Source: a virus
Taxonomy: Duplodnaviria; Caudoviricetes
Length of the DNA: 28,017 bases
Virus record (IMG/VR): IMGVR_UViG_3300020337_000013
Coordinates: 1 to 28,017 of that record
Strand: one strand, 5' to 3'
In this document: in pieces, positions 453-27,930 of the stretch
Layout of the letters: the number at the start of each line of letters is the position of its first letter
Numbering within the stretch: position 1 is the stretch's first letter
Notes under the pieces: generated by a model
Told to the model about the DNA's origin: nothing
Database searches by the model: none
What the model saw: only the letters and a program-made list of their open reading frames with translations
Translations under genes and position numbers: made by a program

Positions 453-456
453 TTAT

Positions 457-2163: not shown

Positions 2164-2167
2164 ACAT

Positions 2168-2974: not shown

Positions 2975-2982
2975 TTTGTTTC

Positions 2983-3576: not shown

Positions 3577-3592
3577 ATTTGTTTCTCTCTAG

Positions 3593-3600
3593 TATTTATC
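3593..3600 (-). promoter_or_regulatory. Putative T4-type late promoter variant (GATAAATA)
   Basis: 7/8 match to TATAAATA, 16 nt upstream of ATG at 3576, overlapping the upstream stop codon. Confidence 0.45.
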
Positions 3601-3937
3601 CTAATGCAACAGCCATTGCAATAGAAAATCCTGTTGTTGTTGCAGCTGTTGTTTGTGTAGTTCCATCAGCATAAGTTATTCCACTACTACTAAATGTCAA
3701 TCCAGCAAAAGTAGAAGTACCAGCGAATGTATTATTACCAGTAAAAGCAATATTGGCAGTTCTGTCAAATGCATTTGTATTTAATACAACGATAGCTTCT
3801 ACAATGTCAGTTGATGAAGCAATCAAACCTGTTGCAGCTTTCAAATCTGCAATATCACCAACATCTTCTGCAGTAGAATTATAGGTTGTTCTAAAGAGTT
3901 CAAAAGTATCACTTGCTGCTATGCTTCTATCTGCCAT
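3596..3937 (-). CDS. Short fibre-like virion protein (113 aa)
   Basis: N-terminal DTFE.FR..YN motif of T4-like fibre proteins; C-terminal TTGFSIAMAVALG motif common in marine phage tail proteins. Confidence 0.6.
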   Translation of the reverse strand: MADRSIAASDTFELFRTTYNSTAEDVGDIADLKAATGLIASSTDIVEAIVVLNTNAFDRTANIAFTGNNTFAGTSTFAGLTFSSSGITYADGTTQTTAATTTGFSIAMAVALG

Positions 3938-4160
3938 TTTCTCTCTCTAGTAATTGTTTCATCATTGATTTCATTTCATGCATTTCTGATTTAATAGTAT
4001 TTATCTCTCTGACTGCACCTCTTAACTCATCTCTTTGTCTTTGAGCTTCGTGTCTGATTTTTTTACTTCTTTCATACGCATCAAAATCTGTACTAATAAT
4101 AGCCTTTGAATAAGTTTCTCTTACTAAATGGTCTTTATCTTTTACTTTTATTTCTGACAT
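3927..4160 (-). CDS. Conserved hypothetical coiled-coil protein (77 aa; likely start MSEIKV at 4160)
   Basis: KVK...LVRE..SKAII.TD...Y followed by heptad pattern; follows the VrlC-like gene; start moved from 4178 to avoid overlap. Confidence 0.7.
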   Translation of the reverse strand: MSEIKVKDKDHLVRETYSKAIISTDFDAYERSKKIRHEAQRQRDELRGAVREINTIKSEMHEMKSMMKQLLERENGR

Positions 4161-4164
4161 AAAA

Positions 4165-11550: not shown

Positions 11551-11552
11551 TC

Positions 11553-13070
11553 TTAAAACTCAACTATAATTTTAATATCTTCTGTTTGGTCAGAAGCTCT
11601 AGAAATTGGTCTTCTATTTTCTATGTATATTATCTCTCCACTATCAGGATGTAATTCTGGATTAGCAAAACCACTAGTAAAAGCAATACTATCAACAGTT
11701 TCTGAACCAGTTGATGAAGGTGTTCCTGTTACACTAGAATTCGCACCTGTGATAACATTTGCACCTGAGAATGCAGTTGCATTACCTGATGCATCTACAC
11801 CATAATCAGAGAATCTTTCTTGTTGAAAATATAATATTTTATTTGTAGCATCCCATTCTACAACTCTACCAACAGCACCAGTTGTGGCTTGTGTTATTTT
11901 TTCATCTATTTCGTAATCACCTGATGGTGATGGAATATAAGCTGCAAATGTTTGTCTTGCAGTAGATGCAGAAAATAATGTTGAACTATTATATTGTGTA
12001 GGATTTTTAACTATACCTACTTGTCTAAAATCATTAGCAACTGTAATATCTTGACCTTCTTCTTGTTCAAACTTTGTATTTAAAATTACAAAGTGACCAC
12101 CTAATTCATTAACTGCATTGTGTCCGTGACCAACAGGAGGTGATATAATTGGTGTTATAGCTCCTGCAGATGCAGAGTTCCAAGATGTTAAAGTAGAACC
12201 ACTAATTAATGATGTTGCAGCAGCATCTGTGTATATGTTTGTACCTGCTAAACTAACTGTTGCAAAAGTATATTTTGAACCACCTGCCTGTACAGTTGAA
12301 ACACCAGATTCACCAAATCTTGTAATTACATTTGAAGCTACCACAAGTTTAAGAATACCTCCTGAACCATCACCTTGAACTTTTGCATAGTAAGTACCAT
12401 CAGGATAACCACTACCTTGATTTGTTACTAAGAACACATCAATAGGTGCACCATTAAAAGGTGCAGTATCACCACTTGCTGATTGGGCTGCAGAAGATAC
12501 TGTTGAGTCGGTTGTAACTGCAGCAAAATCTGTTGTAAGAAATTTATCAATTTCTGTTGTTGTCATTGTGTACATATATTGTAAGTAATAACCACCAACA
12601 AATTGTTTGACAGGTGATGTAAAAGTAGGTTCCGTTGTGAGTGGAAATGTGTTACCTAAAGCATTTAAATTATATAATACTTTATAAACTCTAAATGCAG
12701 AATTGACAAAGAAATAAGTTCCGTCAAATAAATTGTTAACACCTGAACTATTAGCAAGATTTGTACTACTAATATTATGTTCGTACATATCATAAGTTGT
12801 TCCTGATGAATATGTTCTTCTTGGAACACCTCTAGACACATCTGCAGCAGCAATTGCATTAGCACCTAACATTGAATCCCATCTATAATTTTCAGCAGTT
12901 ATATCATCATTTGGAGTTGGAGGTGCAGTATCACTGCCACCTGAAGTTCCTGTAGTGAATGGTGATGATTTACCAATGAACATATAATAATTTTCATTGG
13001 TTTCTGAGAACGACTCTTCAAACTGAGCCGCACTGTTTAGTCTAAACTTTTCTGTAATGATTGCTGCCAT
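11553..13070 (-). CDS. gp8: Baseplate wedge subunit gp8 (505 aa)
   Basis: MAAIITEKFR start; GHG.NA..ELG, NDFRQVGIVKNP, SGEIIYIENRRPISRASDQTEDIKIIVEF terminus characteristic of T4-like gp8. Confidence 0.92.
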   Translation of the reverse strand: MAAIITEKFRLNSAAQFEESFSETNENYYMFIGKSSPFTTGTSGGSDTAPPTPNDDITAENYRWDSMLGANAIAAADVSRGVPRRTYSSGTTYDMYEHNISSTNLANSSGVNNLFDGTYFFVNSAFRVYKVLYNLNALGNTFPLTTEPTFTSPVKQFVGGYYLQYMYTMTTTEIDKFLTTDFAAVTTDSTVSSAAQSASGDTAPFNGAPIDVFLVTNQGSGYPDGTYYAKVQGDGSGGILKLVVASNVITRFGESGVSTVQAGGSKYTFATVSLAGTNIYTDAAATSLISGSTLTSWNSASAGAITPIISPPVGHGHNAVNELGGHFVILNTKFEQEEGQDITVANDFRQVGIVKNPTQYNSSTLFSASTARQTFAAYIPSPSGDYEIDEKITQATTGAVGRVVEWDATNKILYFQQERFSDYGVDASGNATAFSGANVITGANSSVTGTPSSTGSETVDSIAFTSGFANPELHPDSGEIIYIENRRPISRASDQTEDIKIIVEF

Positions 13071-13085
13071 TGTAATTCCTTATTA

Positions 13086-13093
13086 TATTTAGT
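13086..13093 (-). promoter_or_regulatory. Putative late promoter variant (ACTAAATA) upstream of gp8
   Basis: Intergenic CTAAATA followed by AGGA RBS and ATG at 13070. Confidence 0.55.
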
Positions 13094-13099
13094 CTATTT

Positions 13100-13393
13100 C
13101 TATGATGGTTCCGTAGGCCAAGTTACATTATTTACTTGTTCTTCAGTTGTTAAACCATCTGTCAAATCTCTAAGAGCTTGACGGTATGTTGTCCATTCAG
13201 AACTTAAAGTTAAATCAGAACTAGCTCTCCAATCTGTTGCAGCTAGTTTTGCATTTCTTTCTCTTCTTAAATTTGCCATCGCACGATCAAATGCACCTGC
13301 AGCCCAAGCTGTATCTCTTGTTTCTAATGCAGTAATCTCTTCAGCTGTAAGTTCAACTCTTTTTCCATTAACCATTTTATGTGTATAAGCCAT
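13100..13393 (-). CDS. Tail fibre assembly chaperone (Phage_tail_APC-like, 97 aa)
   Basis: LRRERNAKLAATDW...WTTYRQALRDLT...VTWPTEP signature. Confidence 0.85.
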   Translation of the reverse strand: MAYTHKMVNGKRVELTAEEITALETRDTAWAAGAFDRAMANLRRERNAKLAATDWRASSDLTLSSEWTTYRQALRDLTDGLTTEEQVNNVTWPTEPS

Positions 13394-13394
13394 A

Positions 13395-13673
13395 CTAATC
13401 TCCTTTAGGATGTTTATCTTTTATAGCTTTAATTGTTGCTTTCCATCCATCAATTCCATTGTGATATATATCGTCTAATTGATCTTCTATTCTTGGGTAT
13501 TCATTTTCTCGTTTATCTTTATATGCTTCAGGGTCTGTCCAAGCATTTACTTGTGTCCAATTAACAGTAACTTCTGCACCATTACTATCTGTAGCTACAA
13601 TCGTTTCTTGCGTATCACCATTAATAGTAACTACTGAATTATGTATTGCTCGTATGGCTTTATGTAAATCCAT
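13395..13673 (-). CDS. Putative tail fibre chaperone/XkdW-like protein (92 aa; likely start MDLHKAI at 13673)
   Basis: Y...R..EYP.I.DQLD.IYH.G...WK..I.AIK.K.PK motif; TAATG overlap with upstream gene and AGGAG RBS support the shorter start. Confidence 0.7.
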   Translation of the reverse strand: MDLHKAIRAIHNSVVTINGDTQETIVATDSNGAEVTVNWTQVNAWTDPEAYKDKRENEYPRIEDQLDDIYHNGIDGWKATIKAIKDKHPKGD

Positions 13674-14194
13674 TATGCTCCTACCTCCATACAAGTTAAA
13701 CTTGTTGATCCTCTAAATAAATCATCAGAACTTCTTCTGTTAATATAATAAGTATAAGAACCACTACTTCCTCTAAAATATAATTTATAAGTTATTTCTG
13801 ATGTCGTATTTGGTGAGTCTAAAAAATTACCACTTACTGAATGATATGCTCCATTACCTGCATAAGAACCTGATGCGTAGTTATAAGTACCACCTCCTGT
13901 ACCTTGACCAATAGCATTATATCCACCACCACCAATATCTCTATAAGCTGTAAAAAACATATGAGCATTATAATTATTACCCATAGTACCTACATCAAAC
14001 ATTACTAACACTTTACTAGATGTTGCTGATGGAGTTAAGGTTAACGATAATCCAGATATCGCAACATCACTTGTAGAAGTGGTACTTGCAGTATCAGACT
14101 TAAATGCCGATTGCACTTGTAATATTTTTCCAACACCACTTGCTGCTGTTAGTGTACTGTTTACATTTAAATTATCTACTGTTAATGTTCCCAT
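13673..14194 (-). CDS. Small fibre/tip-like virion protein, paralog 3 (173 aa)
   Basis: MGTLTVDNL start; GKILQV...GLS.T.TP.ATSSKVLV...FLDSPNTTSEITYK...SLT.MEVGA beta-sandwich family common in marine phages. Confidence 0.7.
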   Translation of the reverse strand: MGTLTVDNLNVNSTLTAASGVGKILQVQSAFKSDTASTTSTSDVAISGLSLTLTPSATSSKVLVMFDVGTMGNNYNAHMFFTAYRDIGGGGYNAIGQGTGGGTYNYASGSYAGNGAYHSVSGNFLDSPNTTSEITYKLYFRGSSGSYTYYINRRSSDDLFRGSTSLTCMEVGA

Positions 14195-14195
14195 T

Positions 14196-14822
14196 TTATT
14201 TTACCAATCCATATATTGCAAAATTGTTCATTGTAATGTTTCCTCCACTCATATAAAATCTAATTCCATTCACCACACTATTATATGAGTTTATATCTTG
14301 CCCAGCTTGAAAATTATATCCTACTGTATTTCCATTTGTAGCACCACCAAAAACTTGACCTTGTAATCTTGTAGCAATACTTGTACTATTTACATTAGTT
14401 AAATCCATTTGTGCCGTTACTGTTTCTCCAGTTGCATTACCAAAATTGGCAGCTAGTTGCATATATGTTCCTCCAAGAGAATCATAATTATATGTTGAAC
14501 TTGTATTTGCACCATTTTCGTAACAATAATTTGCTTCTACAATAGTACCACCAACAAAAAATCTAGTATATAAAATTGTGTTATCAGTAGCAAAAGTAAA
14601 TCCTGCTATGATTCTATAATTATCATAATTTGAATTGATGTATGTACTATCTATATCAAAGTTTGCTACACCAGAAGAAGATGTGGATGTAAGTAATTTA
14701 ACCATACCAACATCAGTAGTTCTTAATGCTGATTCAGGAAGTAAATTTGATGTTGCAGCTCCATTTGTGATAAGTGCAGTACCATCTCTTTTTTGTAAGT
14801 TATCTACTTTTAATGTGCCCAT
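14196..14822 (-). CDS. Small fibre/tip-like virion protein, paralog 2 (208 aa)
   Basis: MGTLKVDNLQK start; GMVKLLT...INSNYDNYRI...VNGIRFYMSGGNI....AIYGL family pattern. Confidence 0.7.
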   Translation of the reverse strand: MGTLKVDNLQKRDGTALITNGAATSNLLPESALRTTDVGMVKLLTSTSSSGVANFDIDSTYINSNYDNYRIIAGFTFATDNTILYTRFFVGGTIVEANYCYENGANTSSTYNYDSLGGTYMQLAANFGNATGETVTAQMDLTNVNSTSIATRLQGQVFGGATNGNTVGYNFQAGQDINSYNSVVNGIRFYMSGGNITMNNFAIYGLVK

Positions 14823-15502
14823 TACACTATTCCATATACTTTTACTGTTCCGTGTGATTCAAATTTTGTTGTTGTATGGTTTAGAGAACCACCAGAACCA
14901 CCACCACCTACACCTAACATAAATGAAATAGTATCGTAAGATGTACTTGCAGTAGCAATATTTACTCCTTGTTCAAAATAATCTAGTGATGAACTTCCGT
15001 GCATTAGTGTATTAGATATAACACACATTGGATCTGTGCTTACTTGTGGATTTAAAACTTCACAAAACCCACTAGTATATATATCTTCATTTACTGAAAA
15101 ATTTTGACAAAGTGTTCCAATATCATAACCATCTCCGTAAACTACACCATTTTGAGTTGTATCTCCTCTAATATATTGTAATGAATGTTTTATAGTTGTA
15201 GACCCTGTTGTGCCTACACTACCACCACTTCCAAATCTAAATAGTAATGCACCATTAGCGGCATTAGCTGTACTAGCTTTTTCTCTTATGTTGTAATAAA
15301 TTTTGTAATTTGTATAAGTAGAAGTAAAAATATTTGCAAAAACAAATCCTTCTGTTGCATCTGAACCACTTGCAACTGTTTTTGTTTCTAATAAAACCAT
15401 ACCAACATTAGAACTTCTTAATGTTGCTGATGGAATAACACCATCAGTAATAACAGCACTACCATTTTCTTTTTGTATATTATCAACTCTTAAAGTACTC
15501 AT
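14822..15502 (-). CDS. Small fibre/tip-like virion protein, paralog 1 (226 aa)
   Basis: MSTLRVDNIQK start; GMVLLET...FTSTYTNYKI...GTVKVYGI; same family as 14196..14822. Confidence 0.7.
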   Translation of the reverse strand: MSTLRVDNIQKENGSAVITDGVIPSATLRSSNVGMVLLETKTVASGSDATEGFVFANIFTSTYTNYKIYYNIREKASTANAANGALLFRFGSGGSVGTTGSTTIKHSLQYIRGDTTQNGVVYGDGYDIGTLCQNFSVNEDIYTSGFCEVLNPQVSTDPMCVISNTLMHGSSSLDYFEQGVNIATASTSYDTISFMLGVGGGGSGGSLNHTTTKFESHGTVKVYGIV

Positions 15503-15510
15503 ATGTTTTC

Positions 15511-15873
15511 CTATATTATAACAACATCACCTTCTATTGTCAAGGTGTTTCCTGAGGTTACTGTTATCGGTCCTACTGTCATTGCATTAGCTCCTTGAGG
15601 AATCGTTAATGTTTCATTTATAAATTTAGTGTTAGCTCTAAACTGTGCTGATTGCCCAAAAGATTGAGGAATGGCATTGGCGTCAAGAACATCATTGTGT
15701 TGAACTTTTGAACCAGCATTAGCACTAGCATTATCTGTACCATCAAGTAAAAGATTATCACCATCTTCTAGTAATACATTAACAGATGCACCTAAACTTA
15801 CAGATGCATTAATCTTTGCAGTTGTGATGGCACCGTCTTCTATACCATCAGTAGGAACTTGAAAAACAGCCAT
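15511..15873 (-). CDS. Putative fibre adaptor/structural protein (120 aa)
   Basis: IEDGAITTAKI motif, LLEDGDNLLLDGTD acidic motif, C-terminal NAMTVGPITVTSGNTLTIEG motif that commonly precedes MSTLxVD genes in marine phages. Confidence 0.6.
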   Translation of the reverse strand: MAVFQVPTDGIEDGAITTAKINASVSLGASVNVLLEDGDNLLLDGTDNASANAGSKVQHNDVLDANAIPQSFGQSAQFRANTKFINETLTIPQGANAMTVGPITVTSGNTLTIEGDVVII

Positions 15874-15882
15874 AATTTATCC

Positions 15883-16782
15883 TTATGAAATAGTTACGCC
15901 GTTACTTGCAACAACATTCCAATTTGTACCATTATAAACTAATAATACATTATCTCCAACATCATTCCACACAATACTTGTAGAAACATTTGTAGAGTTT
16001 AAATTACCACCAGATTGTGTCATTGTAACATCACCATTATCTGTTGTCATAACAACTATTTTTCTTTGACCAGCAAATCTTCCAGCAGCCATTGTTATTG
16101 AACCAGAACCTGATAAAGCTAAAGTTGAAACTTCAACATCACGACTTAATGCACCTGCACTAGTAATGTTTTCTGTAGAAGAACCTTGTAGTGTAGATGT
16201 CACATTTGGTAATGTAACTGTAATGTTACCACTAAAAACAGAATGAGCTGGTGCTTGAAGAGCAGCATAGTGAGCATTTGAAGATTCACAGTATAGTCTA
16301 ACTTGTGATTGAGCACCATCATTTTTTAAATCTATAATACCAGTTGATAAAGTAATTCTATCATTACCACCAAACTTAATATCAATTTGATCATCAGTAT
16401 CAGCTGTAATTGATGTATCAGCATCTGCATCTAAAACTAATTCTTTTGCATTTAAATCAAACTTAGTTGCAGTCATTTGAAAAATGTCTGCACCATTAAT
16501 TTTGAAATCAATAGTATCGTCTGTGTCGGCTGTAATTGAAGTATCTGCATCAGCATCTAAAATCAATTCTGAACCATTCATATCTAAACTTGTGGCGATT
16601 ACGGGTGCAGTCAAAGTTACTACTGTTGCAGTTGCACTAAGACCACTTGTTAAAGCAGAACCAGTACCCAATAAGGTATATAATTCTACGAAATTATCGT
16701 TAACCTTGTCACCGCCAGCACGAAGTGTATCGCCAGTACCGTCATTTGCTGATGAACCAAGACCGATTGATTGATATGCCAT
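15883..16782 (-). CDS. gp9/gp10-like baseplate tail-fibre connector (299 aa)
   Basis: N-terminal IGLGSSANDGTGDTLRAGGDKVNDNFVELY is the T4 gp9/gp10 N-terminal signature; internal 42-aa duplication. Confidence 0.75.
   Translation of the reverse strand: MAYQSIGLGSSANDGTGDTLRAGGDKVNDNFVELYTLLGTGSALTSGLSATATVVTLTAPVIATSLDMNGSELILDADADTSITADTDDTIDFKINGADIFQMTATKFDLNAKELVLDADADTSITADTDDQIDIKFGGNDRITLSTGIIDLKNDGAQSQVRLYCESSNAHYAALQAPAHSVFSGNITVTLPNVTSTLQGSSTENITSAGALSRDVEVSTLALSGSGSITMAAGRFAGQRKIVVMTTDNGDVTMTQSGGNLNSTNVSTSIVWNDVGDNVLLVYNGTNWNVVASNGVTIS
16360..16590 (-). repeat. Two-copy coding tandem repeat, 126-bp (42-aa) period
   Basis: ELILDADADTSITADTDDTIDFK vs ELVLDADADTSITADTDDQIDIK; TGTAATTGA at 16405 and 16531. 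Confidence 0.85.
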
Positions 16783-16807
16783 ATCCTAATCTCCTAATAT
16801 ATGACTA

Positions 16808-16815
16808 TATTTATA
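16808..16815 (-). promoter_or_regulatory. T4-type late promoter TATAAATA
   Basis: Perfect consensus in the gp7/gp9-like intergenic gap, followed by AGGAG (16791..16795) and ATG at 16782. Confidence 0.8.
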
Positions 16816-16818
16816 ACA

Positions 16819-19800
16819 CTAGCTTGCGGTAGTGTCAAAAGTTAATCCATTAATTGTTAGTGTTGAGTCAAATTTAAACTCTGATGCATCAAAGGTAGTT
16901 GTTACATCTGCAATTTGGTCTGTACTAAAAGCAGTATCAAATCTTGCAAATGGTCCACCTAATGTATCATCAAATGTATAATTATCTTGTGAGAAGTCAA
17001 GCGGGTTAGTTATGCCCGCAATACCTTCATCAAATTTAAATGTTGTACTATCAAAAGTATGACCTATTTCAGAGAAATCTGTAAACTCAGTACCAAGAGT
17101 ATCTCTACCTGTTCCTGTACCTTCATCAAATGTATGTCTAATACTATCAAATGTAGTATAGTCCATATCAAATGCTTGATGTGCACCAGTCTTTCTAACT
17201 CTTATCTCACCTCTAGGTGGGACATTAATTCTTGTTGTAGTAGCACCATCTGCAAAACCATTGTTTGCAATCTCGTCAAAAGTTCGTGTAGTTGAATCAA
17301 ACTTCTCTTCGTCTGTGTCACTAAACCCGCCAGTTACTGATACATCACTAAATGTAAAATCTTTAAACTGGTCTATAGTATAATACGCATGAATGTTTTC
17401 ATCATCTTCTAAGAAACCCTCTTGCATAAATCCATATTTAGCTAAGTTAATTAAGAAAGGTGCACTAGCTTGTACAGTTGCATTAGTACCACCCATACTT
17501 ACAGTTACATCTGAACTTAGTGTTAACTCTCTTTTACCTGATGGTAATGTTGTACCCATTGATGCATTTTCTTCATATCCTATATTAGGTGAAGTATTTA
17601 ATGTTGTGCCATCTGTGGTTGTACCAAGTCTACGACCAAATACAGCTGTAAATATATTTGTAAATGTTGAAGCAAGTTCTGGAGTGAATGTTTCTGTATC
17701 ACCAATGTAACCAGAAATTTCTGAACCAGTAGGTATGGTAACACCACCATATATTCTTGTTGCACTAACGACTTGGCCAAATACTTGAAAACCAGCTGGG
17801 TGAGTTGCAGTTTTAATACTATCACGCCATTCATTTATTGATTCACCTATTTTAATTACATAAGAAAAATCTTGATAATAATAAGAATCTTGAATTCTCA
17901 TTTGGTCTTCAGAAACAAAACCTTTGTTGCCAATAAACTCACCAGTTGTATTACCTACTGAACCTGTATCTAAAACACCTTCTGCACTTAAACATTGAAC
18001 CACTGTTGCTGATGCATTTGCAGTTGATATTCTTTCACCCACACTAGGTGTATGAGTAGAATTTATTTTTACAATTTTTCTAGAGCTATCAAAACTAACC
18101 ACACTACCATCTGAAGATGTAAGACCCTCTAAAGATGTAAATGTTCCTACAACATCTTCTAACAATACATTCTTATTAAAACGAACTGAATCAACTTGTG
18201 TGTCTTCATCAAGAATACTATCACCTTCACCTTCGTTTTCAATTAATATATGATTGCCTGCAATTCTATCAGCAGATACTGTTCCATCTTCTAACACAAT
18301 ACGAATTGTTTCGTTACGATAATCAGCACCAAACTCTTTTATTCTAATAGCAGATATCGCACCAACACCAGATGTAGATTTTGCTGTTAAGTCTGCACCT
18401 GAACCACTTGTAAAGGTTTGTGCACTATTACCAGTTGTGGTAAAGTCAATTTCAAATTGTGATTCTTCATCTATTAAACTACCTTCACCATCTGTGGTTT
18501 CAATGGTAATGTCTCCACCTTCATTAACACCACCAGGACCAGATGAATTTAATACAATATTAAATTGTTCACTATCACTTTTAGTTGCTGCAAGTTTTAT
18601 AAAATCTTTTGTGAATCTTATTACAAAATAAGTTGTGCCACTAACCAATCCACCAATTGATGTACCACCACCATTATTGTAAACTAGTAAATCACCAGTC
18701 ACCAAACCGTGATTTAAAATTCTAATTGTGTTTTCATTTACTAATACATTACTTGTTGTAATTGTTCTTGTAATAGCTGAAACACTCAATACAGGTAATT
18801 TAGTATAACCATTACCTTGATTAGTAATTCTTATTCTAGTGATTTCACCTCGTTCTTGAGTTGGTAAAGTTGCTGGTTCTAATTCTGTAAAGTTTTCGTT
18901 TTCTAATAGTAGTGTATCAGGACATTCTGATTGTTCTAATTGTATAAGTTCATTGTTTAAAATATTTTCTTTTAATAAAAATTCACCTTCGTTAGCTGAT
19001 GAAGCATCAGTGCCGTCTAGTATTATATTGTCAATGGTTGGGTCTTGTTCAAGTTTTAATTCAAACAAGCTTGATTCTTCGCGAAGAATATTATGATTAC
19101 CTAATTCATCTTCTAGAATTAAATCATTTGCTATATCAACATCTGGTATTGATAATCTTTTATTTTGTTCTGTAAGTGTTTCTTCATCTTTTAAAACACC
19201 TAAAGTTATTCCATCAACATCTATTAAAGTTTTTAAGTTTGATAAAAATGTTCTTTTTCTTTTTTGAGGTACCACATTTTTATAGCCACCATCTGTTCCT
19301 TGAAGTCCAGAGGCATTAGCCCAAGATGTCCATATGTTTGAGAAAGGTTCAATGGGATAATAATCTTCATCTTGGTCAATCATTAATCTACCATTTTCTA
19401 ATTCATCTTCTAATATAATATCTTGACCCTCATCTGCTCTTGCAGAATTTGTACCATCTAATTTTAAAGTGTTTCTACTAAAGTCAAAGACTCTTGTTTC
19501 TACAATAATATTTTCACCAGCATTTGCACCACTACCATCAGTTCCATCTAACACAATATGAATATCATCAACAGTTGCATTTTCTAATTCAATATTACCT
19601 GGAGAGTTTACGATTATTTTATCATCATCATTGAATCTAAGAAGTTCAGGAGCTGTTGCGTGTTCTAATTCTATTGACCCACCTGCAACATCTATCTCTG
19701 CAGTAAAGTCTTTACCATTTGTATCATCATTATTAATTGTAATTGAAGTGCCAGATGTATAACCTGTACCACCAGCATCAATTATCACTTCATCAACTTC

Positions 19801-20868
19801 ACCTTCAGAAGTTTTAAATACTTCCATATCACCAAAATTATTACCACCGATAACATTTATGTTATCACCTGTTTCATAATATTGTCCAGTTGATAATAAA
19901 GTAACACCTGTTAATATTTCTTTTACAACACCATTAATAGATACATCATCAATAATATCTGTAGTGGAAACAGTTTCACCTACTAAAAAGTCACCAGTTA
20001 AAGAACCCTCTGCCATAGATAATTGTGCGTATGATTCACCACCTTCTTGAAAGTTTGTAACAGTTGTAATTCTACCAGTAATACCTGAAGTTGCACCTGT
20101 AAGAACTTGGTTTGCCGCATTACTAAAATTTACATTTCCTGATGATGTAACTCTGACTATTGGTTCAGTATTCCAAGAACCATCAGATGGTCTTAATAAA
20201 TTATCTCTAGGAAATATAACTTCTATCTCTTCATCAAATAACATTCTAAAGAATAATTTGTGACCGTCAACTGTACCTTTCTTAGTGTAAAGTTCTTTAA
20301 TATTTTTAATTAATTTTCTTTTAGATAATCCTGTTGCTAATGTATTAGGTATGCCTTCTAAAAATGAATCTCTAAATTTATCTAAAAAATCATATATTGT
20401 ATGGTCAACATCAGCATAATCTAAAAACTGTTGTATGTTCTGTACTGGATTTGCTCTATAAGAAACAACAGTTGCAACAGAACCAGAAGTTACACCTCTG
20501 ACACTTTCACCTGTAATAAATTGTTGTTGTGAGGTAATGTATAATGTTTTATTACTATCAAAATCATCTACAAGTATTGTTGCAGTTGCACCAGATGTAA
20601 GACCTGTGATTGTTTCACCAACTACAAATTTTGCAAGTGAATCTTCTAATACAACTTTTTCACCATCAACTTCACTACTAATATAATTTACAGAAGCTGT
20701 TTCTTGAATCACATAATTTATTGTACCACTTAAAACAAGTTGACCTGATTCTAGAAAACGATAATAATCTTTTAGAAATTTAACAAACTTTGGATGGTCT
20801 GCTCTTACAAACTCTGGTAAAAATTCCTGAAGAATAGGAGATAATTTTTTCTCAAATATATTTGACAT
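16819..20868 (-). CDS. gp7: Baseplate wedge initiator gp7-like protein (1349 aa)
   Basis: LPEFVR.DHP.FV.FLK.YY.FLE, LIKNIKELY.KKGT...K.FFR.LF.EE..V.FP...LL.PSDG.W N-terminus and RIQDSYYYQDFSYVIK...W...IK...HPAGF.VFG C-terminal signature; follows gp6. Confidence 0.85.
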   Translation of the reverse strand: MSNIFEKKLSPILQEFLPEFVRADHPKFVKFLKDYYRFLESGQLVLSGTINYVIQETASVNYISSEVDGEKVVLEDSLAKFVVGETITGLTSGATATILVDDFDSNKTLYITSQQQFITGESVRGVTSGSVATVVSYRANPVQNIQQFLDYADVDHTIYDFLDKFRDSFLEGIPNTLATGLSKRKLIKNIKELYTKKGTVDGHKLFFRMLFDEEIEVIFPRDNLLRPSDGSWNTEPIVRVTSSGNVNFSNAANQVLTGATSGITGRITTVTNFQEGGESYAQLSMAEGSLTGDFLVGETVSTTDIIDDVSINGVVKEILTGVTLLSTGQYYETGDNINVIGGNNFGDMEVFKTSEGEVDEVIIDAGGTGYTSGTSITINNDDTNGKDFTAEIDVAGGSIELEHATAPELLRFNDDDKIIVNSPGNIELENATVDDIHIVLDGTDGSGANAGENIIVETRVFDFSRNTLKLDGTNSARADEGQDIILEDELENGRLMIDQDEDYYPIEPFSNIWTSWANASGLQGTDGGYKNVVPQKRKRTFLSNLKTLIDVDGITLGVLKDEETLTEQNKRLSIPDVDIANDLILEDELGNHNILREESSLFELKLEQDPTIDNIILDGTDASSANEGEFLLKENILNNELIQLEQSECPDTLLLENENFTELEPATLPTQERGEITRIRITNQGNGYTKLPVLSVSAITRTITTSNVLVNENTIRILNHGLVTGDLLVYNNGGGTSIGGLVSGTTYFVIRFTKDFIKLAATKSDSEQFNIVLNSSGPGGVNEGGDITIETTDGEGSLIDEESQFEIDFTTTGNSAQTFTSGSGADLTAKSTSGVGAISAIRIKEFGADYRNETIRIVLEDGTVSADRIAGNHILIENEGEGDSILDEDTQVDSVRFNKNVLLEDVVGTFTSLEGLTSSDGSVVSFDSSRKIVKINSTHTPSVGERISTANASATVVQCLSAEGVLDTGSVGNTTGEFIGNKGFVSEDQMRIQDSYYYQDFSYVIKIGESINEWRDSIKTATHPAGFQVFGQVVSATRIYGGVTIPTGSEISGYIGDTETFTPELASTFTNIFTAVFGRRLGTTTDGTTLNTSPNIGYEENASMGTTLPSGKRELTLSSDVTVSMGGTNATVQASAPFLINLAKYGFMQEGFLEDDENIHAYYTIDQFKDFTFSDVSVTGGFSDTDEEKFDSTTRTFDEIANNGFADGATTTRINVPPRGEIRVRKTGAHQAFDMDYTTFDSIRHTFDEGTGTGRDTLGTEFTDFSEIGHTFDSTTFKFDEGIAGITNPLDFSQDNYTFDDTLGGPFARFDTAFSTDQIADVTTTFDASEFKFDSTLTINGLTFDTTAS

Positions 20869-22766
20869 TAGTAACCACTACTACTACTTGCACCTGTTGT
20901 GATGTATCTAGAAGAAGTACTTGCAGTAGTTACAGCTGAAGATGTTGTTGTTGCTGCTGAACCTGAACTGGATACTGTTGTGTCAACTTTAGAACCTATG
21001 GTAGAATTGTTTATGTCAATTTCTAAAATTGTATTTCTTAAAGGAATAATATCTGAAGACCTAGGTACTGCAACAACTCTTACAACTGAAGACTCAGAAT
21101 CATCAACATTAGAAATAGAATTTATTTTTACTGAGGGTATTGTAATTAAACCTAAATCATAATTAACTGTACCAAAGTTTAAATCAACATAGGTTCTTGT
21201 GGTACCTACTAAATAATATGTCCTTAATGCACCATCAGCATCATCTAAAAATAATTCATTAGTGTTACCATCTATTTTAAATCCTGTTGATGATATAACT
21301 GATTCGTGGCCACCGTGAGGATAATAGATAGCATTTGCAAAATTGATTTCATACTTTGTTGTTTCACCTAATGTTGGTGTAAAATTTTTAGCCATTTGAA
21401 CTGTTGTAATATTTGATATTATAGATTGGTCTGTGTTATCAATCAAAGTTAATAATTCTGAATATCTAAAGTTACTGTTAAATTGTTTTAAATTATTATT
21501 GTTATAATCATTTATTGTAGTGTTAACTAACGCCTCTAAATCTGCTGCACTACTATTTGTAATTGTTGAATTATAATCAAAGTTAACTGTAAGACGAATA
21601 AAAATAGTTTCAGGATTTGTAATCTCTGTTCTAATAGAACCAACATTATATTGTTTTAATGATTCATTAATGTTTGCCTTTTGAGAATTAGTCAAATCGT
21701 TTCTATCTTTTGTAAGTATAGAAATAAAAACTTTACCATAAGTCGGTGGGTCATTATCTTCACCACCCCATACTTGAACTGACTCTGCATCAGGAAAGAC
21801 ATTTGGTACAAAAACTTTATAATCATTTACTGTTACTGCACGACCTTGACTTGCATAATCTAAAGGTGCTTTAAATTTAATACTTTCTATACTTTCTTTT
21901 TCAGAACCACCTTTGGCACTATCAACAGTTAATATTGAATTATCACTAGAACCACTAATTGATGCTGGTGGTGTAAATACAGAGGCACCATTACCTTCGG
22001 TTCTATTAGTAACAATATATTCTAATATTACAATGTTACTATCTGTTAATGATTTACCTAATACACCATCACCAAAGTAAACCTCATATTGTCCATTATC
22101 AACTTCTTGTAAAAAGTAAACATTACTTGTACCAGTAACTTGAGTTATATCTTCGTTTAATGTATATACTGTTGTTGTAGCATCAGTGCTAGAATTTTGT
22201 ACTGTAACTTTTAATGTTGTAGTATCTACATCACTTGACGGTATGATATATTTTTGGTCTATGTTTGTGGTATCAACTGTGTACCTTGTAGTAATTAAAT
22301 CGCCTTCATATAAATCTACATTAGTAAAAGTTAAAACATTACTTACTCTTGATTGAGTTAAATCTGATATTGTAAAGAAATTATAATTTTGATTATCTAT
22401 TGTAGTAGTAAATTTTGTACCTCGAGGTATCGTGGCAGTTGTGACAGAAGTATCGTTAATCGTAATATCCACAACAGCTACAGGTGAACGAGCACTTCTT
22501 GGTAAGTATCCTAAACTTTTTGCATGTGAAACAACTGATGACCTTAAACTTGCACTATCTATAAACATTTCGTTAGCAGCTAAGTTTACATTCATAGCAC
22601 TATAGTGTGTATTATATGCTAGAACATCTAAAAGAATATTCATACCTGAACCTTCAAAGTCATAGTCTGTAAATTCGTTTTGATTTTTTAGGAATGTTTT
22701 TAGATTTTCTTTGATACCATCAAAGTCTAATTCTGAAACTGAAATTCTTTTGTCGTTTGTTGCCAT
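20868..22766 (-). CDS. gp6: Baseplate wedge subunit gp6 (632 aa)
   Basis: ELDFD.IK.NLK.FL..Q.EFTDYDFEGSGM.ILLDVLAYNTHY, ESI.SIKF.AP..YASQ.RAVT..DY, VWGGEDNDPP.YGKVFISI. Confidence 0.95.
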   Translation of the reverse strand: MATNDKRISVSELDFDGIKENLKTFLKNQNEFTDYDFEGSGMNILLDVLAYNTHYSAMNVNLAANEMFIDSASLRSSVVSHAKSLGYLPRSARSPVAVVDITINDTSVTTATIPRGTKFTTTIDNQNYNFFTISDLTQSRVSNVLTFTNVDLYEGDLITTRYTVDTTNIDQKYIIPSSDVDTTTLKVTVQNSSTDATTTVYTLNEDITQVTGTSNVYFLQEVDNGQYEVYFGDGVLGKSLTDSNIVILEYIVTNRTEGNGASVFTPPASISGSSDNSILTVDSAKGGSEKESIESIKFKAPLDYASQGRAVTVNDYKVFVPNVFPDAESVQVWGGEDNDPPTYGKVFISILTKDRNDLTNSQKANINESLKQYNVGSIRTEITNPETIFIRLTVNFDYNSTITNSSAADLEALVNTTINDYNNNNLKQFNSNFRYSELLTLIDNTDQSIISNITTVQMAKNFTPTLGETTKYEINFANAIYYPHGGHESVISSTGFKIDGNTNELFLDDADGALRTYYLVGTTRTYVDLNFGTVNYDLGLITIPSVKINSISNVDDSESSVVRVVAVPRSSDIIPLRNTILEIDINNSTIGSKVDTTVSSSGSAATTTSSAVTTASTSSRYITTGASSSSGY

Positions 22767-23206
22767 TACCTTACTCTTTCTAATAATACATCTAGTGTTA
22801 CTAGCTCTCCTGGACTATTGACAACAAAAAATTCAATACGAACATCATAAGCATTTCTGTCTATATTAGGGATTGCTTTTATATTACTCAACTCTACCCT
22901 TGACTCATAAGTTTTAATTACAGTTTCAATATTTCTAGATAATAGTGCTGCTGTAATTGGTGATAAGTTTTCAAACAATGTTGCTCTTATGTTTGATCCT
23001 ATCTCAGGATGAAAAGGTTTTTCATAATGATTTAATTGTACAAGGTTTCTTACACTTCTTTTTATAGCCTCTATGTCTGTAAGTTTGCTAACATCATTCG
23101 TTACAAGATTAGGTGCAAAGTTTAAATTTAAATCTTTGAATATACGAACACTTCGTTTCTCATTCGTAATACTGGCATCGTAGTTAACACTTCCTTTAGT
23201 AGGCAT
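22766..23206 (-). CDS. gp25: Baseplate wedge protein gp25 (146 aa)
   Basis: FKDLNL.F..N..T.D...L.D.EAIKRSVRNLV.....EKPF.PEIGS.I...LFE...YE.RV, directly upstream of gp6. Confidence 0.93.
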   Translation of the reverse strand: MPTKGSVNYDASITNEKRSVRIFKDLNLNFAPNLVTNDVSKLTDIEAIKRSVRNLVQLNHYEKPFHPEIGSNIRATLFENLSPITAALLSRNIETVIKTYESRVELSNIKAIPNIDRNAYDVRIEFFVVNSPGELVTLDVLLERVR

Positions 23207-23222
23207 AAAAATCTCCTATACT

Positions 23223-23230
23223 TATTTATA
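23223..23230 (-). promoter_or_regulatory. T4-type late promoter TATAAATA
   Basis: Perfect consensus in intergenic gap, followed by AGGAG (23213..23217) and gp25 ATG at 23206. Confidence 0.8.
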
Positions 23231-23238
23231 GTGTTATG

Positions 23239-23529
23239 CTAACCACCTGCAAAAACATTCTCACTTCCTTGTGCAACAGAAGTACAAGATGAAATACCAT
23301 CACCTATTCTTCCACAACCTTTGTTGTTTACAAAAACTGTAGTTGAACCCACGGCAATAGGTCGTGAATGTGCAGGACAAGGCAATCCTGGTAATACATG
23401 CACTGTATTATTATCACCTTGTCTTGATACACCTATACCATTTACAAAAACATTATCTGAACCTTGTAGTCTATTTGGTCGTGAACAATGTACAACATCT
23501 GCATCACCTATTCGTGTTACTGCTGGCAT
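23239..23529 (-). CDS. PAAR-domain spike tip protein (gp5.4-like, 96 aa)
   Basis: MPAVTRIGD..V.HC, GS.NVFVNG..V.RQGD...H, H...I..GS.TVFVN....GRIGD...C...GS.NVF.G repeats; near gp5. Confidence 0.9.
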   Translation of the reverse strand: MPAVTRIGDADVVHCSRPNRLQGSDNVFVNGIGVSRQGDNNTVHVLPGLPCPAHSRPIAVGSTTVFVNNKGCGRIGDGISSCTSVAQGSENVFAGG

Positions 23530-23735
23530 TACTCTTCCTCCCTCATCATTAACTCTTGAAGCTTATCGTTAAATGTTTCTATATATTTATGGTCTTCTTC
23601 ACTATGTGGTGAAGGTGGTGCTTCAGGTTCAAATGATATCATATTTTCAAATGAATCTGGTATATCATTCCAGTTGGTATAAGTGACAACTTTACCACCA
23701 ACTAAAACTTTATATGTTCCATCACCCTTGGCCAC
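23529..23735 (-). CDS. Conserved hypothetical protein (68 aa, GTG start)
   Basis: Y....DIP..F...I.F.P..PP.PH.EE.H..IE pattern; translationally coupled to PAAR gene. Confidence 0.75.
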   Translation of the reverse strand: MAKGDGTYKVLVGGKVVTYTNWNDIPDSFENMISFEPEAPPSPHSEEDHKYIETFNDKLQELMMREEE

Positions 23736-23859
23736 GATACTTTTTAAAACTCCGTCTTTTACTTTTATTCATTGTAGAAGTTTTAACTTTACCTCTACCT
23801 ATTGATGTTCTTTTGAATGTCGGTTCGTAAACAGACATTGTATTCATTTTTTTAGCCAT
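23722..23859 (-). CDS. Small basic protein ending KKYRGQG (45 aa), not in ORF track
   Basis: Manual translation MAKKMNTMSVYEPTFKRTSIGRGKVKTSTMNKSKRRSFKKYRGQG*; fills the gap after gp5; the K.YRGQG terminus is typical of a small marine phage family. Confidence 0.85.
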   Translation of the reverse strand: MAKKMNTMSVYEPTFKRTSIGRGKVKTSTMNKSKRRSFKKYRGQG

Positions 23860-23862
23860 TGT

Positions 23863-24936
23863 CTAATCCTTATTTAAATCAATTCTTGTACCTTCAATAC
23901 TTATGTTACCACCAGCTTTCGTGTCTTGGTCACCACCATAATCTTCAGATACATCACCACTAACAGAAGATGATTGAGATTTCTTAATTGTTTCTGAATG
24001 ACTGCCGTCAATCGTTTCTGTATGATTACCTTTAATCACCTCTGTAAGATTACCATCTACTTGTATATCCCAATTACCCTTTACATAGGTTCTACAGTTA
24101 GAGTCAATCGTTAAATTACAATCACCTTTTACATTTACAAATTCTGAACCAGCAACTACTTCATAATTACTTCCTACAATTCTTGTTGTTTTATTTCCGT
24201 CTGCATCTATTTCGTAGAATGTACCTGTTCTATGATATTCCATAACTCGTTCTGCAAACGGCGTATCATCATATTCTTTTATGTGACCTGACTCTGATTC
24301 TTTCGTGTGATTATAAGGATACTCTGAACCTACTCTTTTCTTTTCTTCTCGTTCTTCATTTGTTTCTGTTGAGATACCTCGTTCTTCTGTTTTACCTCTA
24401 CCAGTTTCATCAGTTGTTTTTTGTTCATCCCAAGTTGTGTCTGTATTGGCCAATGGAATTTTAAGAGTTGCAGCTTCATCTCTTGCTTCTCTATTGCCGT
24501 GTGTCGTGCTTGGTACACCTAATCTATTTACATCAGATTCACTTGTACGAACAGGATAAGGACCAAAGTCTTCTCTTAACTCTGGGTCATTGAAACCTTT
24601 TTCTTTATTATTTTTTTGTGATGGTTTACCAGGAAGAGTTCCTAGTATAATTGGTTCTTGTAAATGTTGTGCATCACGAAAGAATCCTACAACCCAACAT
24701 CCTGGTACTAACCAAGATGGTGTATCACCAATACCATTCATACTTGGTGTTGTCGTTGGTGACATTACCAACGCCCAAGGTAAACTCTCTGTAGGGATTT
24801 TAGTTTTATCTTCGGTATGATAGCCAAGTGCACGAACTCGCACACGGCCTAATCGGTGTGGGTCATCTCTATCTTCAACGACACCTACAAACCAAGAGAA
24901 ACCATCTTGCCCCATAAAATAAGAATAATTTTTCAT
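23863..24936 (-). CDS. gp5: Baseplate hub/central spike gp5 without lysozyme domain (357 aa)
   Basis: WFVGVVEDR.DP.RLGRVRVR..G.H...LPWA...VVGFF.D....Q.P.ILGT OB-fold, YPYNH..ESESGH..EYDDTP..ER....HR.GTF.EI, and 8-residue V.G beta-helix repeats. Confidence 0.92.
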   Translation of the reverse strand: MKNYSYFMGQDGFSWFVGVVEDRDDPHRLGRVRVRALGYHTEDKTKIPTESLPWALVMSPTTTPSMNGIGDTPSWLVPGCWVVGFFRDAQHLQEPIILGTLPGKPSQKNNKEKGFNDPELREDFGPYPVRTSESDVNRLGVPSTTHGNREARDEAATLKIPLANTDTTWDEQKTTDETGRGKTEERGISTETNEEREEKKRVGSEYPYNHTKESESGHIKEYDDTPFAERVMEYHRTGTFYEIDADGNKTTRIVGSNYEVVAGSEFVNVKGDCNLTIDSNCRTYVKGNWDIQVDGNLTEVIKGNHTETIDGSHSETIKKSQSSSVSGDVSEDYGGDQDTKAGGNISIEGTRIDLNKD

Positions 24937-24949: not shown

Positions 24950-25142
24950 CACACATCAATCGTATCTCTTCGCGTTCTCTAAATTCTTGTTTGAGAACTT
25001 TCTTTCTTTTTTTTGTAAGTTTGATAACTTGTTCCCACCAGTAAGCACGAATGTCTTTTTTGGTATCGTCATCTTGATACTTACGAATCATAGAGCCACA
25101 ATCATTGATTGCTTCTCTTAACATATCACTTTCTAATCTCAT
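24945..25142 (-). CDS. Hypothetical protein (65 aa)
   Basis: ORF with ATGA overlap to thyX; charged helical composition. Confidence 0.65.
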   Translation of the reverse strand: MRLESDMLREAINDCGSMIRKYQDDDTKKDIRAYWWEQVIKLTKKRKKVLKQEFREREEIRLMCE

Positions 25143-25792
25143 TTCTCTACTATATCATCAAAGTTTGTTTTTGTCAAGTATTTCCAAGAAATAGGAAATG
25201 CATCTTGACAATGAATATCTATTTGTTTAGCTATCTCTTGTGTTTCTTTTTGTGCATGATCATCTAATCGTAAACCACATACTCTTGCAAATGCAAAAAG
25301 TGTGCCTGACCATATCCAATTAGTATACATTGTTTGTGGTAACACAGCACGAGCTTGTTCAGGTGCAACATTATGTGATAACAATGTATTGTAAAGATTT
25401 ACACTTTTCTTTAAATGTTCTGATACTTCTAATTGTAATTCAGATGGTATGAGTATTTGTTCACCACTACCTTGTTTACTGTTTTGAGGTTTCTCTCGCC
25501 ACTTACGAATGAAATAAAGTTCTGGGTCATCAGAAATGTATCTACGACTTTCTTCATTCCATACTAATCCTATTTGATGCTTGACTAGTTGTCGTGCAAC
25601 AAACACTGGTGCCTTTATGCGAAAAGAAAGGAAAGTGTGAGCGAAAGGCGACCAGTGATTGTGTTCTGCTAGATAACGAATAAGTCGTTTATCTGATTCT
25701 TCAAATTCTGTTTTTTCTTTTGCATAGGAAACTCTAGCTGCATTGACAACAGATAGGTCGTCTCCCATTTTATCTATTAATTCTACCTTCAT
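25139..25792 (-). CDS. thyX: Flavin-dependent thymidylate synthase ThyX (217 aa)
   Basis: VVNAARVS, H.HWSPF.H, AP.FVARQLVKHQ.GL.WNE.SRRY, APEQAR.VLPQ.M.T, LR....AQ.E motifs. Confidence 0.95.
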   Translation of the reverse strand: MKVELIDKMGDDLSVVNAARVSYAKEKTEFEESDKRLIRYLAEHNHWSPFAHTFLSFRIKAPVFVARQLVKHQIGLVWNEESRRYISDDPELYFIRKWREKPQNSKQGSGEQILIPSELQLEVSEHLKKSVNLYNTLLSHNVAPEQARAVLPQTMYTNWIWSGTLFAFARVCGLRLDDHAQKETQEIAKQIDIHCQDAFPISWKYLTKTNFDDIVEK

Positions 25793-26466: not shown

Positions 26467-26669
26467 TGTACAAAACACTCATATGGTATCGTAAACGATA
26501 GATAAAACAATAATATGATATTAGCTGCAGATAAACATGCAGTCAAAAAGATTGCCCACTCAAGTCTGTGTGGCCATACTTTAAATTCAAAGAAGTCTTC
26601 TACACTCCACCAGAAGTTTTGTAGAAACTTCCAAGTATCAATACATATTTCTTTAAATATCGTTTTCAA
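26463..26669 (-). CDS. Hypothetical membrane protein (68 aa)
   Basis: Trp/Phe-rich amphipathic N-terminus and hydrophobic WAIFLTACLSAANIILLFYLSF segment. Confidence 0.6.
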   Translation of the reverse strand: MKTIFKEICIDTWKFLQNFWWSVEDFFEFKVWPHRLEWAIFLTACLSAANIILLFYLSFTIPYECFVQ

Positions 26670-26910
26670 GATTTAATCCTTTATCTTTGTTGCGTTTTTG
26701 ATCCTCTAAATAATTCTTATAACCTTCTTGACTATAACATTCAGCTGTTACGACAACTGTTTCAAACTTATTTTTAAAGATATAATCTATATCAGCTTTT
26801 GCTTGACTACAATGACCAAACGAAGTATATGCTCGTAACTCGTAAGTCTTTGGATCAAAAGCATTGTCATTGTGTATAATTGATACAGCTAGTACCATTA
26901 ACCATTTCAT
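26653..26910 (-). CDS. Hypothetical protein with two Cys (85 aa)
   Basis: MKWLMVLAVSII hydrophobic start; Y.S...C..A...C pattern. Confidence 0.6.
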   Translation of the reverse strand: MKWLMVLAVSIIHNDNAFDPKTYELRAYTSFGHCSQAKADIDYIFKNKFETVVVTAECYSQEGYKNYLEDQKRNKDKGLNLENDI

Positions 26911-27026
26911 TTCGTATTCTCCTCGGTTGCATCACACCAATTACACGGATAACCCTTTTCTGTACCTATAATATCTTTTTCTACAGGACAGTAATGTTCC
27001 CAAAATTCTATATCATCAGAAATCAT
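26907..27026 (-). CDS. Tiny putative zinc-binding protein (39 aa; HxC...CxxC)
   Basis: MISDDIEFWEHYCPVEKDIIGTEKGYPCNWCDATEENTK; start moved from 27089 to 27026 because the longer form overlaps the SDHAF4-like gene. Confidence 0.6.
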   Translation of the reverse strand: MISDDIEFWEHYCPVEKDIIGTEKGYPCNWCDATEENTK

Positions 27027-27177
27027 AACAGATACCTTTCTTTTCCCAATCACCATAACGCGTGGGTTCGGGACCCTTACGACCACCAATCTCTTTTTCG
27101 TTTGAAAACTGAGATAGTTTTACATTTGTAATTTGTGGCGAACGCCATTCTATTTCGTAAGGGTACCAACCGCACAT
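27016..27177 (-). CDS. SDHAF4/Sdh8 (DUF1674) succinate dehydrogenase assembly factor homolog (53 aa), not in ORF track
   Basis: Manual translation MCGWYPYEIEWRSPQITNVKLSQFSNEKEIGGRKGPEPTRYGDWEKKGICYDF*; C-terminus matches the family signature E.GG.KGPEPTRYGDWE.KG.C.DF-stop. Confidence 0.88.
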   Translation of the reverse strand: MCGWYPYEIEWRSPQITNVKLSQFSNEKEIGGRKGPEPTRYGDWEKKGICYDF

Positions 27178-27182
27178 ATTAG

Positions 27183-27494
27183 TTACTCACTAGCACCAGT
27201 GTTACCAAAGTAAGCTAATGGATTAGTAGGAGCACCAGTGTTACCAAAGTAAGCTAATGCAGTAGAACCCATAGCAGCATTGGCTGCAGCAATCATAGCT
27301 CGTGAAGGTCTACCAACTCTATACGCAACACCTTCTGATGTATCGTTACGATAGATACACATACCTGATGCTCTGAGTGAGTCAATTAGTTTTCTTGGTG
27401 ATTTAACTTTTGTCTTGAGATAAGACCAAGTCACATTACGACCTGAGTTTAGTTTGTTTACAATTTTTTGTGTTGTACTTAGTTTTTTATACAT
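27183..27494 (-). CDS. Putative winged-helix DNA-binding early protein (103 aa)
   Basis: Basic; KIV..L.SG..VT......VKSPR..I..LR..G..IY.N......YR.G.PSRAMIAA pattern; GGAG RBS and sigma70 promoter directly upstream. Confidence 0.6.
   Translation of the reverse strand: MYKKLSTTQKIVNKLNSGRNVTWSYLKTKVKSPRKLIDSLRASGMCIYRNDTSEGVAYRVGRPSRAMIAAANAAMGSTALAYFGNTGAPTNPLAYFGNTGASE
27192..27259. repeat. 29-bp exact direct repeat x2 (27192..27220, 27231..27259), 39-bp period
   Basis: AGCACCAGTGTTACCAAAGTAAGCTAATG twice, encoding LAYFGNTGA twice in frame. Confidence 0.92.
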
Positions 27495-27527
27495 TTACAC
27501 TCCATAGTTTAAGTTATTATTAATCAT

Positions 27528-27556
27528 AGTATACCATAGTTTTCGTTGAATGTCAA
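27528..27556 (-). promoter_or_regulatory. Sigma70 early promoter TTGACA-N17-TATACT with extended -10 TG
   Basis: Minus strand TTGACA TTCAACGAAAACTATGG TATACT, intergenic, upstream of ATG at 27494. Confidence 0.88.
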
Positions 27557-27564
27557 GGGTGTTG

Positions 27565-27735: not shown

Positions 27736-27741
27736 AGATTT

Positions 27742-27770
27742 ATTCTATACTTTCTTACAGTTTTCGTCAA
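27742..27770 (-). promoter_or_regulatory. Sigma70 early promoter TTGACG-N17-TAGAAT
   Basis: Minus strand TTGACG AAAACTGTAAGAAAGTA TAGAAT, intergenic; 6 nt from ATG at 27735. Confidence 0.8.
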
Positions 27771-27780
27771 GGGTAACTCG

Positions 27781-27924: not shown

Positions 27925-27930
27925 ACTATA

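Follow-up and report, generated by a model that had tools for sequence, protein, structure and literature searches.

The window, that is, the whole stretch of DNA analysed (28,017 nt), is an entire 28-kb virus record, 16% complete, and is a fragment of a marine T4-like myophage. Its features are collected in Table 1. Translation of the minus strand at 27016–27177 gave a protein of 53 aa followed by a stop, with the N- and C-terminal words that the original prediction had read there. A Pfam profile search matched residues 27–53 to PF07896 (DUF1674) with an E-value of 3.8e-16 and 59.7 bits, against a cut-off of 23.5; the proposed assignment to SDHAF4/Sdh8 (DUF1674), for which an HMM search had been suggested as a check, was thereby upheld. 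The only PDB sequence matches of the protein were 2k5k (RhR2) and the human SDHAF4 entries 8dyd and 8dye, and human SDHAF4 aligned with it over the C-terminal 27 residues (E 4.8e-9). No family for the protein was found in PHROGs or NCBIfam. Judged by every sequence test, the 53-aa ORF is a true member of the DUF1674/SDHAF4 family. The exact protein was found on 153 contigs, and at 90% identity it falls in a cluster of 32 members, indicating that the ORF is not an assembly error. All 13 further members of this cluster that were read end in DF, and the total protein length in relatives is 43, 45 or 53 aa.

Table 1. Features of the window, with positions counted from its first letter.
Feature	Position	Strand	Basis
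T4-like baseplate/tail module: gp5, PAAR, gp25, gp6, wedge subunits, gp8-like, fibres	3..24936	(-)	
thyX, end of the small-gene cluster	25139..25792	(-)	
39-aa Cys-containing downstream ORF, overlaps the last codons of the 53-aa ORF, source of the masking call	26907..27026	(-)	
53-aa phage SDHAF4/DUF1674 protein	27016..27177	(-)	Translation, Pfam, PDB matches, intact in relatives
SDHAF4 core (tail), residues 28-53 + stop	27016..27096	(-)	Alignment to 8dyd_C
Phage N-terminal leader, residues 1-27: conserved MCGWYPYE start, then variable-length linker	27097..27177	(-)	
103-aa gene upstream of the 53-aa ORF, first behind the promoter-like site	27183..27494	(-)	
Sigma70-like promoter TTGACA-17-TATACT with TG, predicted driver of the small-gene cluster	27528..27556	(-)	Consensus match only
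Second sigma70-like site, ahead of a 56-aa ORF (27565-27735)	27742..27770	(-)	

In the distant phage copy L002, a GGAG lies 7 nt ahead of the same ATG, which supports the start codon of the 53-aa ORF; the window's own ribosome site before the ORF is weak. The ORF had been described as partly masked by a call in a different frame, and such a call exists: it spans 26907–27089 and encodes 60 aa from a TTG start. The gene in this frame probably starts at the ATG at 27026, which gives 39 aa and an 11-nt overlap with the 53-aa ORF, and it had no Pfam match. It is dispensable in relatives, as L399 lacks it, yet the 53-aa ORF of L399 is intact. Conservation of the motif by the overlapping frame was ruled out, because L399 is without that gene and L002 has another one. 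The unbroken ORF in L002, L399 and the cluster members also agrees with the expectation of intact copies in related phages.

The phage-encoded context was confirmed by the flanking phage genes, including the T4-like baseplate/tail module. The sequence TATAAATA, which we take to be the T4 late-promoter octamer, occurs at 23230 and 16815. The closest gp6 proteins are those of Melnitz (52%) and of Mosig and HTVC008M (48–49%). In the gp5-like spike (357 aa; 23863–24936, minus strand), Pfam matched OB and C-terminal repeat domains and no lysozyme; a PAAR gene follows a short way downstream. Phage homologues of the 103-aa gene were found only in Mosig, HTVC008M and Melnitz, and most close relatives carry a 90-aa version. 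A 39-nt duplication near the end of this gene (27183–27265, minus strand) was seen by eye, and the gene of L396 also encodes 103 aa; Tandem Repeats Finder reported no repeat at 26500–28017. For the tail of the 53-aa protein, a tblastn search of 50,697 cultured-phage records gave nothing at E ≤ 1. The nearest cultured phages have neither the tail nor the Fe-S carrier described below, a mild co-absence.

The 53-aa ORF had been placed second behind a near-consensus sigma70 promoter. This position was borne out: the site at 27556–27528 matches 11 of 12 consensus bases, with the 103-aa ORF first behind it and the 53-aa ORF second. Promoter-like sites in the region, counted as a whole class and not as 11/12 sites alone, were not above chance (12 found versus 15.0 ± 3.5 in shuffles). 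Contigs from marine RNA libraries overlap the ORF (X3, 27044–27220; X2, 27035–27229; X6, 27039–27364); such contigs tell nothing about strand, level or timing, and may stem from carried-over DNA. We rejected them as proof of early timing, since late genes are covered as well and the contigs give no ranking of genes.

To compare functional residues, the numbering of human SDHAF4 was taken from the structural study (PMC10784507) and mapped by alignment to 8dyd_C. Phage residues E29, E37, D52 and F53 correspond to human E84, E92, D107 and F108, and all four are kept. Mutagenesis of these human residues showed a role in binding or in SDHAF2 displacement; in the human structures, the terminal D107-F108 occupy the dicarboxylate site against H407 and R451, E84 and E92 bind R171, and the bound peptide clashes with SDHAF2 and SDHB (PMC10784507). 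The phage protein likewise ends in a free Asp-Phe (D52-F53-stop). The stop lay exactly 8 residues past GDWE in 51 of 51 complete viral loci (45 DF and 6 DY), with a search pattern that left this end unfixed; one of the 52 loci was cut by a contig end. At the docking-glutamate positions, 49 phage-type tails had E in 44 cases and D in 5, and those 5 have an insertion.

Between the window and L002, the tail has 15 silent and 3 replacement differences, an uncorrected pN/pS of 0.057, compared with 0.18 for the whole ORF and 0.30 for the leader. Over 465 pairs of 31 unique tails, pN/pS was 0.21, and it was 0.38 at the codons that the search pattern left free. In phages, purifying selection acts on the tail. 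Selection also acts on the MCGWYPYE start: leader residues 1–11 are identical in L002 despite silent changes, and the leader varies in length among relatives, yet its first 8–11 residues are conserved in this clade. Every residue of the window's tail (26 positions) was also present among 38 alphaproteobacterial tails, so that no change is phage-specific. These tails came from 40 host regions, picked from 135 hits in favour of strong hits and small genomes, and two regions without a parsed tail were dropped. Phage tails shared 21–24 of 26 residues with the nearest host tail, and host tails shared 16–24 of 26 among themselves. The leader is hydrophilic throughout, with all hydropathy windows negative. 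The 53-aa protein begins with Met-Cys (27172–27177, minus strand); Cys2 could become a free N-terminus and is kept in the clade members read except P0004.

With a GTDB search pattern tailored to one tail variant, the exact variant was found at 47 loci, all titled Alphaproteobacteria. The 31 low-GC loci belong to uncultured Alphaproteobacteria, 'Rickettsiales' MED/SAT and Pelagibacteraceae TMED13/REMEI136, and the 16 high-GC loci mostly to Kiloniellales/Rhodovibrionaceae/Rhodospirillales. The best low-GC marine copies share 25 of 26 tail residues with the phage; the low-GC host copies are about 44 aa long, have a Lys-rich leader and lie between rsmB and acs. For that class, 135 of the 201 genomes sampled around G005 carry DUF1674; of 14 control genomes, one has it, that of Caulobacter vibrioides. 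These sequence matches suggest that the host is probably a low-GC marine alphaproteobacterium. The evidence for the predicted alphaproteobacterial, SAR11-like host is weaker than proposed: none of the 47 titles names Candidatus Pelagibacter. In addition, the end of P0002, a close variant of the phage protein, resembles the gammaproteobacterial copy P0110. Among candidate low-GC hosts, SdhA was found in 9 of 10 genomes and SdhE in 3 of 5 incomplete genomes. Candidate-host SdhA has Arg, His and Arg residues spaced by 236 and 44–45, which fits human R171, H407 and R451 as mapped by spacing alone.

The original prediction had not recognised the tail as a portable module that many different carriers bear. 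A wider pattern gave 56 loci in IMG/VR, comprising 50 phage-type loci and 6 giant-virus contigs. The 50 phage-type loci and the window showed nine carrier (N-terminus) types: WDGK peptides (17), the window's L-x-Q-F type (14), a ribonucleotide-reductase-adjacent type (5), KRRP (5), NUDIX (3), IscA (2) and three singletons, with 2 loci cut by contig ends. A stretch is common to the WDGK and KRRP types, which may be related, and the 26 residues of the tail hold too little signal for a tree that would count independent captures. Three of the carriers usually occur without the tail, which marks the tail as a portable unit. It was missing from WDGK-type peptides at 109 of 120 loci (120 of about 210) and from 75 of 78 complete NUDIX genes (best 80 of 255), and 44 MazG-like clusters lacked it, compared with 2 fused clusters of 12 and 51 members. 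The MazG-like gene of L125 is not fused, the tail being on the gene that follows, and in L161 the MazG-like gene itself carries it; the two loci agree in 75 of 78 tail bases and share the genes downstream. The NUDIX-tail fusion exists in two forms that are 91% identical, and an IscA-type Fe-S carrier fused to the tail (171 aa) is present in L127 (2340–2852, minus strand) and L134, with IscU nearby.

The window's leader was never seen without the tail: by its linker pattern, 9 of 9 viral loci had both, and by the MCGWYPYE pattern 8 of 9 metagenome loci did, the ninth being cut inside the tail. In the viral and metagenome data searched, every locus with the MCGWYPYE-type N-terminus (2 viral, 9 metagenome) had a phage context, and within these loci the suggestion of a phage-specific N-terminus was supported. 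Two further observations concern carriers and tails. The WDGK[ST]RP...Y..IF peptide (L175–L294) is itself a shuffled N-terminal module of small marine phage ORFs with many C-termini, some of which have a Cys/His motif that presumably resembles a CDGSH finger. A divergent tail type with an insertion before the TRYGDWE core occurs on ORFs of 63–106 aa (L120, L136, L146, L156 and L163); in L120 and L163 it directly follows ribonucleotide reductase genes.

In 5 of 9 metagenome loci with the window's leader type, the tail gene has an A-type Fe-S carrier gene about 1 kb upstream, a spot that falls just past the window's end; such a carrier gene was also found in 4 of 5 longer tail-bearing contigs. 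A zf-CHCC gene, which we take to be NDUFS6-like (a complex I zinc finger), directly follows the tail gene in L124, L126, L158 and L160, all of the window's leader type, and is present in 2 of the 5 longer contigs. In the 50 short phage loci, all of them tail-bearing, the carrier motif was found in 3, IscU in 5 and the zf-CHCC motif in 9. Six of the seven zf-CHCC regex candidates scanned reached the Pfam cut-off; the match in L135 gave no ORF, and L132 was left out. Matches to a 'CDGSH' regex in phage loci were discarded, as the pattern had picked up the IscA motif. No SdhA-family gene was found in the 5 longer tail-bearing contigs (12–41% complete), no SdhA or SdhB motif in the 50 phage loci, and no link to sdh operons either near 10 SdhA loci or in phage loci. 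A DUF1289 gene also occurs in the window's phage clade (L394, 567–722, plus strand; L126, L158 and L160), and in L394, L396 and L400 the Fe-S carrier gene is close by.

We propose that the phage protein supports the assembly of host complex II and shields its flavin, a reading to which we give an even chance. The SDHAF4 core would have been captured by the phage and set on a phage leader. The protein likely binds the host's newly flavinylated SdhA and, capping the exposed flavin site, likely frees it from SdhE. By analogy with the human system, E29 and E37 would dock on the arginine of SdhA that corresponds to R171, the SdhA dicarboxylate site would be filled by the terminal Asp-Phe, and the bound peptide would clash with SdhE and SdhB. 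Since it would compete with SdhB, the peptide would act on unassembled SdhA only. The context suggests that the phage copy may top up the host's own copy after host expression drops; complex II assembly would then be maintained and reactive oxygen limited during infection. In this way the gene likely helps to keep the infected bacterium's respiration supplied.

Assembly support was favoured because the phage tails lie within host variation, and because in the human system an excess is tolerated and loss is harmful: with more than 10-fold excess of SDHAF4, most SDHA was still assembled (PMC10784507), and SDHAF4 loss impaired assembly and raised ROS (PMC9270418). It was also favoured because of the Fe-S carrier and zf-CHCC neighbours, the IscA fusions, the SdhA and SdhE of candidate hosts and the citrate-cycle expression raised by pelagiphages. 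The last was reported for two podovirus–SAR11 systems, the podoviruses being unrelated to the window's phage (PMC12753301). We counted against assembly support the patchy Fe-S neighbourhood, the SDHA-SDHAF4 species that accumulated in over-expressing human cells (PMC10784507), the fact that no SdhA gene was seen in phages, and the likely presence of the host's own copy. Truncated SDHAF4 displaced about 50% of SDHAF2 instead of about 80% (PMC10784507), and for this reason the tail on a foreign leader may hand over poorly. The structural study terms bacterial DUF1674 proteins putative homologues (PMC10784507), and no experiment showing that a bacterial DUF1674 protein promotes assembly was found in the literature examined. 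When the 53-aa protein (50-row alignment) was co-folded with a candidate-host SdhA (8-row alignment) and FAD, the score was 0.00, which was taken neither for nor against binding. The original prediction had left assembly, sequestration and inhibition open; the evidence leans to assembly support.

The modular form of the tail raises a broader and more tentative possibility. The 26-residue SdhA plug may be a portable viral effector, repeatedly grafted on the 3' ends of unrelated phage genes, by which abundant marine myophages control host complex II, either to throttle it or to bring it cargo, for example an Fe-S carrier; it might then form part of a respiratory-chain kit with IscA, IscU and the NDUFS6-like finger.

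We consider it less likely, though a serious rival reading, that the protein is a sequestering inhibitor, an excess of early peptide that would trap SdhA, plug its active site, starve complex II and divert TCA carbon to biosynthesis. A terminal Asp-Phe that occludes the substrate site and a bound peptide that conflicts with SdhB (PMC10784507) would suit such a role, as would the strong promoter-like site at 27556–27528 and the precedent of CP12, a host-like phage-encoded inhibitor (PMC5082946). Moreover, the tail persists on unrelated carriers, which are without the native leader that complete hand-over requires, and no sdh structural genes were seen in phage loci or longer contigs. However, the more than 10-fold excess of SDHAF4 did not block assembly in human cells, and the peptide cannot reach assembled complex II (PMC10784507); the tail has no phage-specific substitution, and the Fe-S carrier and zf-CHCC neighbours fit maintenance better.

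It appears improbable that the tail is a docking tag, bringing its carrier (IscA, NUDIX, MazG-like or the Cys/Trp-rich leader) to SdhA or another flavoprotein, where the carrier would do the work. Fusions do persist through divergence (the NUDIX-tail forms and the MazG-like-tail clusters), an IscA-tail fusion is biochemically sensible, and the selected MCGWYPYE start was not seen apart from the tail. The tail is nevertheless mostly missing from the WDGK, NUDIX and MazG-like carriers, and in L125 and L161 it stays at one locus while the gene that it ends changes, so that the carrier looks incidental. Finally, a neutral passenger or host contamination, that is, a chance host fragment or a mis-assembled contig, is very improbable: the module is only about 80 nt, Lys/A-rich junctions could ease its capture and no cultured-phage record contains it, but phage genes lie on its flanks, the exact protein recurs on 153 contigs, host copies of this tail type sit elsewhere (between rsmB and acs), and the selection data contradict this reading, with silent sites saturated and the protein kept.

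Compared with known systems, the phage protein shares the C-terminal core and the equivalents of E84, E92, D107 and F108 with human SDHAF4/yeast Sdh8 (8DYD, 8DYE). It differs in length (53 aa versus 108 aa for human SDHAF4) and in its leader, which is unrelated to the human N-terminus, and its target would be a bacterial SdhA. Bacterial DUF1674 proteins (PF07896; 2K5K, RhR2) are also short, with a variable N-terminus and the same core; in contrast to the host copies of this tail type, with their length of about 44 aa, Lys-rich leader and rsmB–acs setting, the phage copy has a conserved Cys/Trp/Tyr leader and lies in a small-gene cluster. The Fe-S genes of marine T4-like phages (ATC, IscU) are likewise small host-derived assembly helpers, often on tail-bearing contigs, and these carriers may serve the phage's own Fe-S enzymes (PMC5332604); they are folded general carriers, whereas the phage SDHAF4 would be a peptide specific to one respiratory enzyme. 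Cyanophage CP12 is another small host regulator captured to act on a central metabolic enzyme and is thought to inhibit the Calvin cycle (PMC5082946). It has no sequence relation to SDHAF4, and its host role is inhibition, unlike that of SDHAF4, a transient cap in assembly.

As to the criteria for an auxiliary metabolic gene, the ORF is an intact host-derived gene between viral genes, and in phages purifying selection maintains it. That phages control photosynthesis is well known; our literature searches found no case in which they control the assembly of respiratory complexes in heterotrophs. A phage-encoded SDHAF4 was not found among the literature matches listed, subscription papers and supplements being outside the search. 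Membership of the family is established by sequence; its phage setting and modular form were not found in print. The target would be the one enzyme common to the TCA cycle and the respiratory chain, which bears on whether infected marine bacteria respire or rebuild carbon. The 26-residue tail offers a synthesisable probe for the role of bacterial SDHAF4, and a length of 53 aa is less than gene callers and AMG surveys usually accept.

Viral genes aimed at complex II are also known from giant viruses: PkV RF01 and related Mimiviridae encode SDH subunits, and the main text of that paper makes no mention of an assembly factor (bioRxiv 2020.07.30.228163). The giant-virus SDHAF4 differs from the phage form in its presequence-like leader and its DY end, and no SDH subunits were seen in the phages. 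SDHAF4-type genes (85–98 aa where complete) were found on the GVMAG contigs L128, L139, L144, L147, L162 and L172, with possible host contamination of the bins. In L147 and L162, SdhB lies beside the SDHAF4-type gene, and L147 also carries SdhC and an Fe-S carrier.
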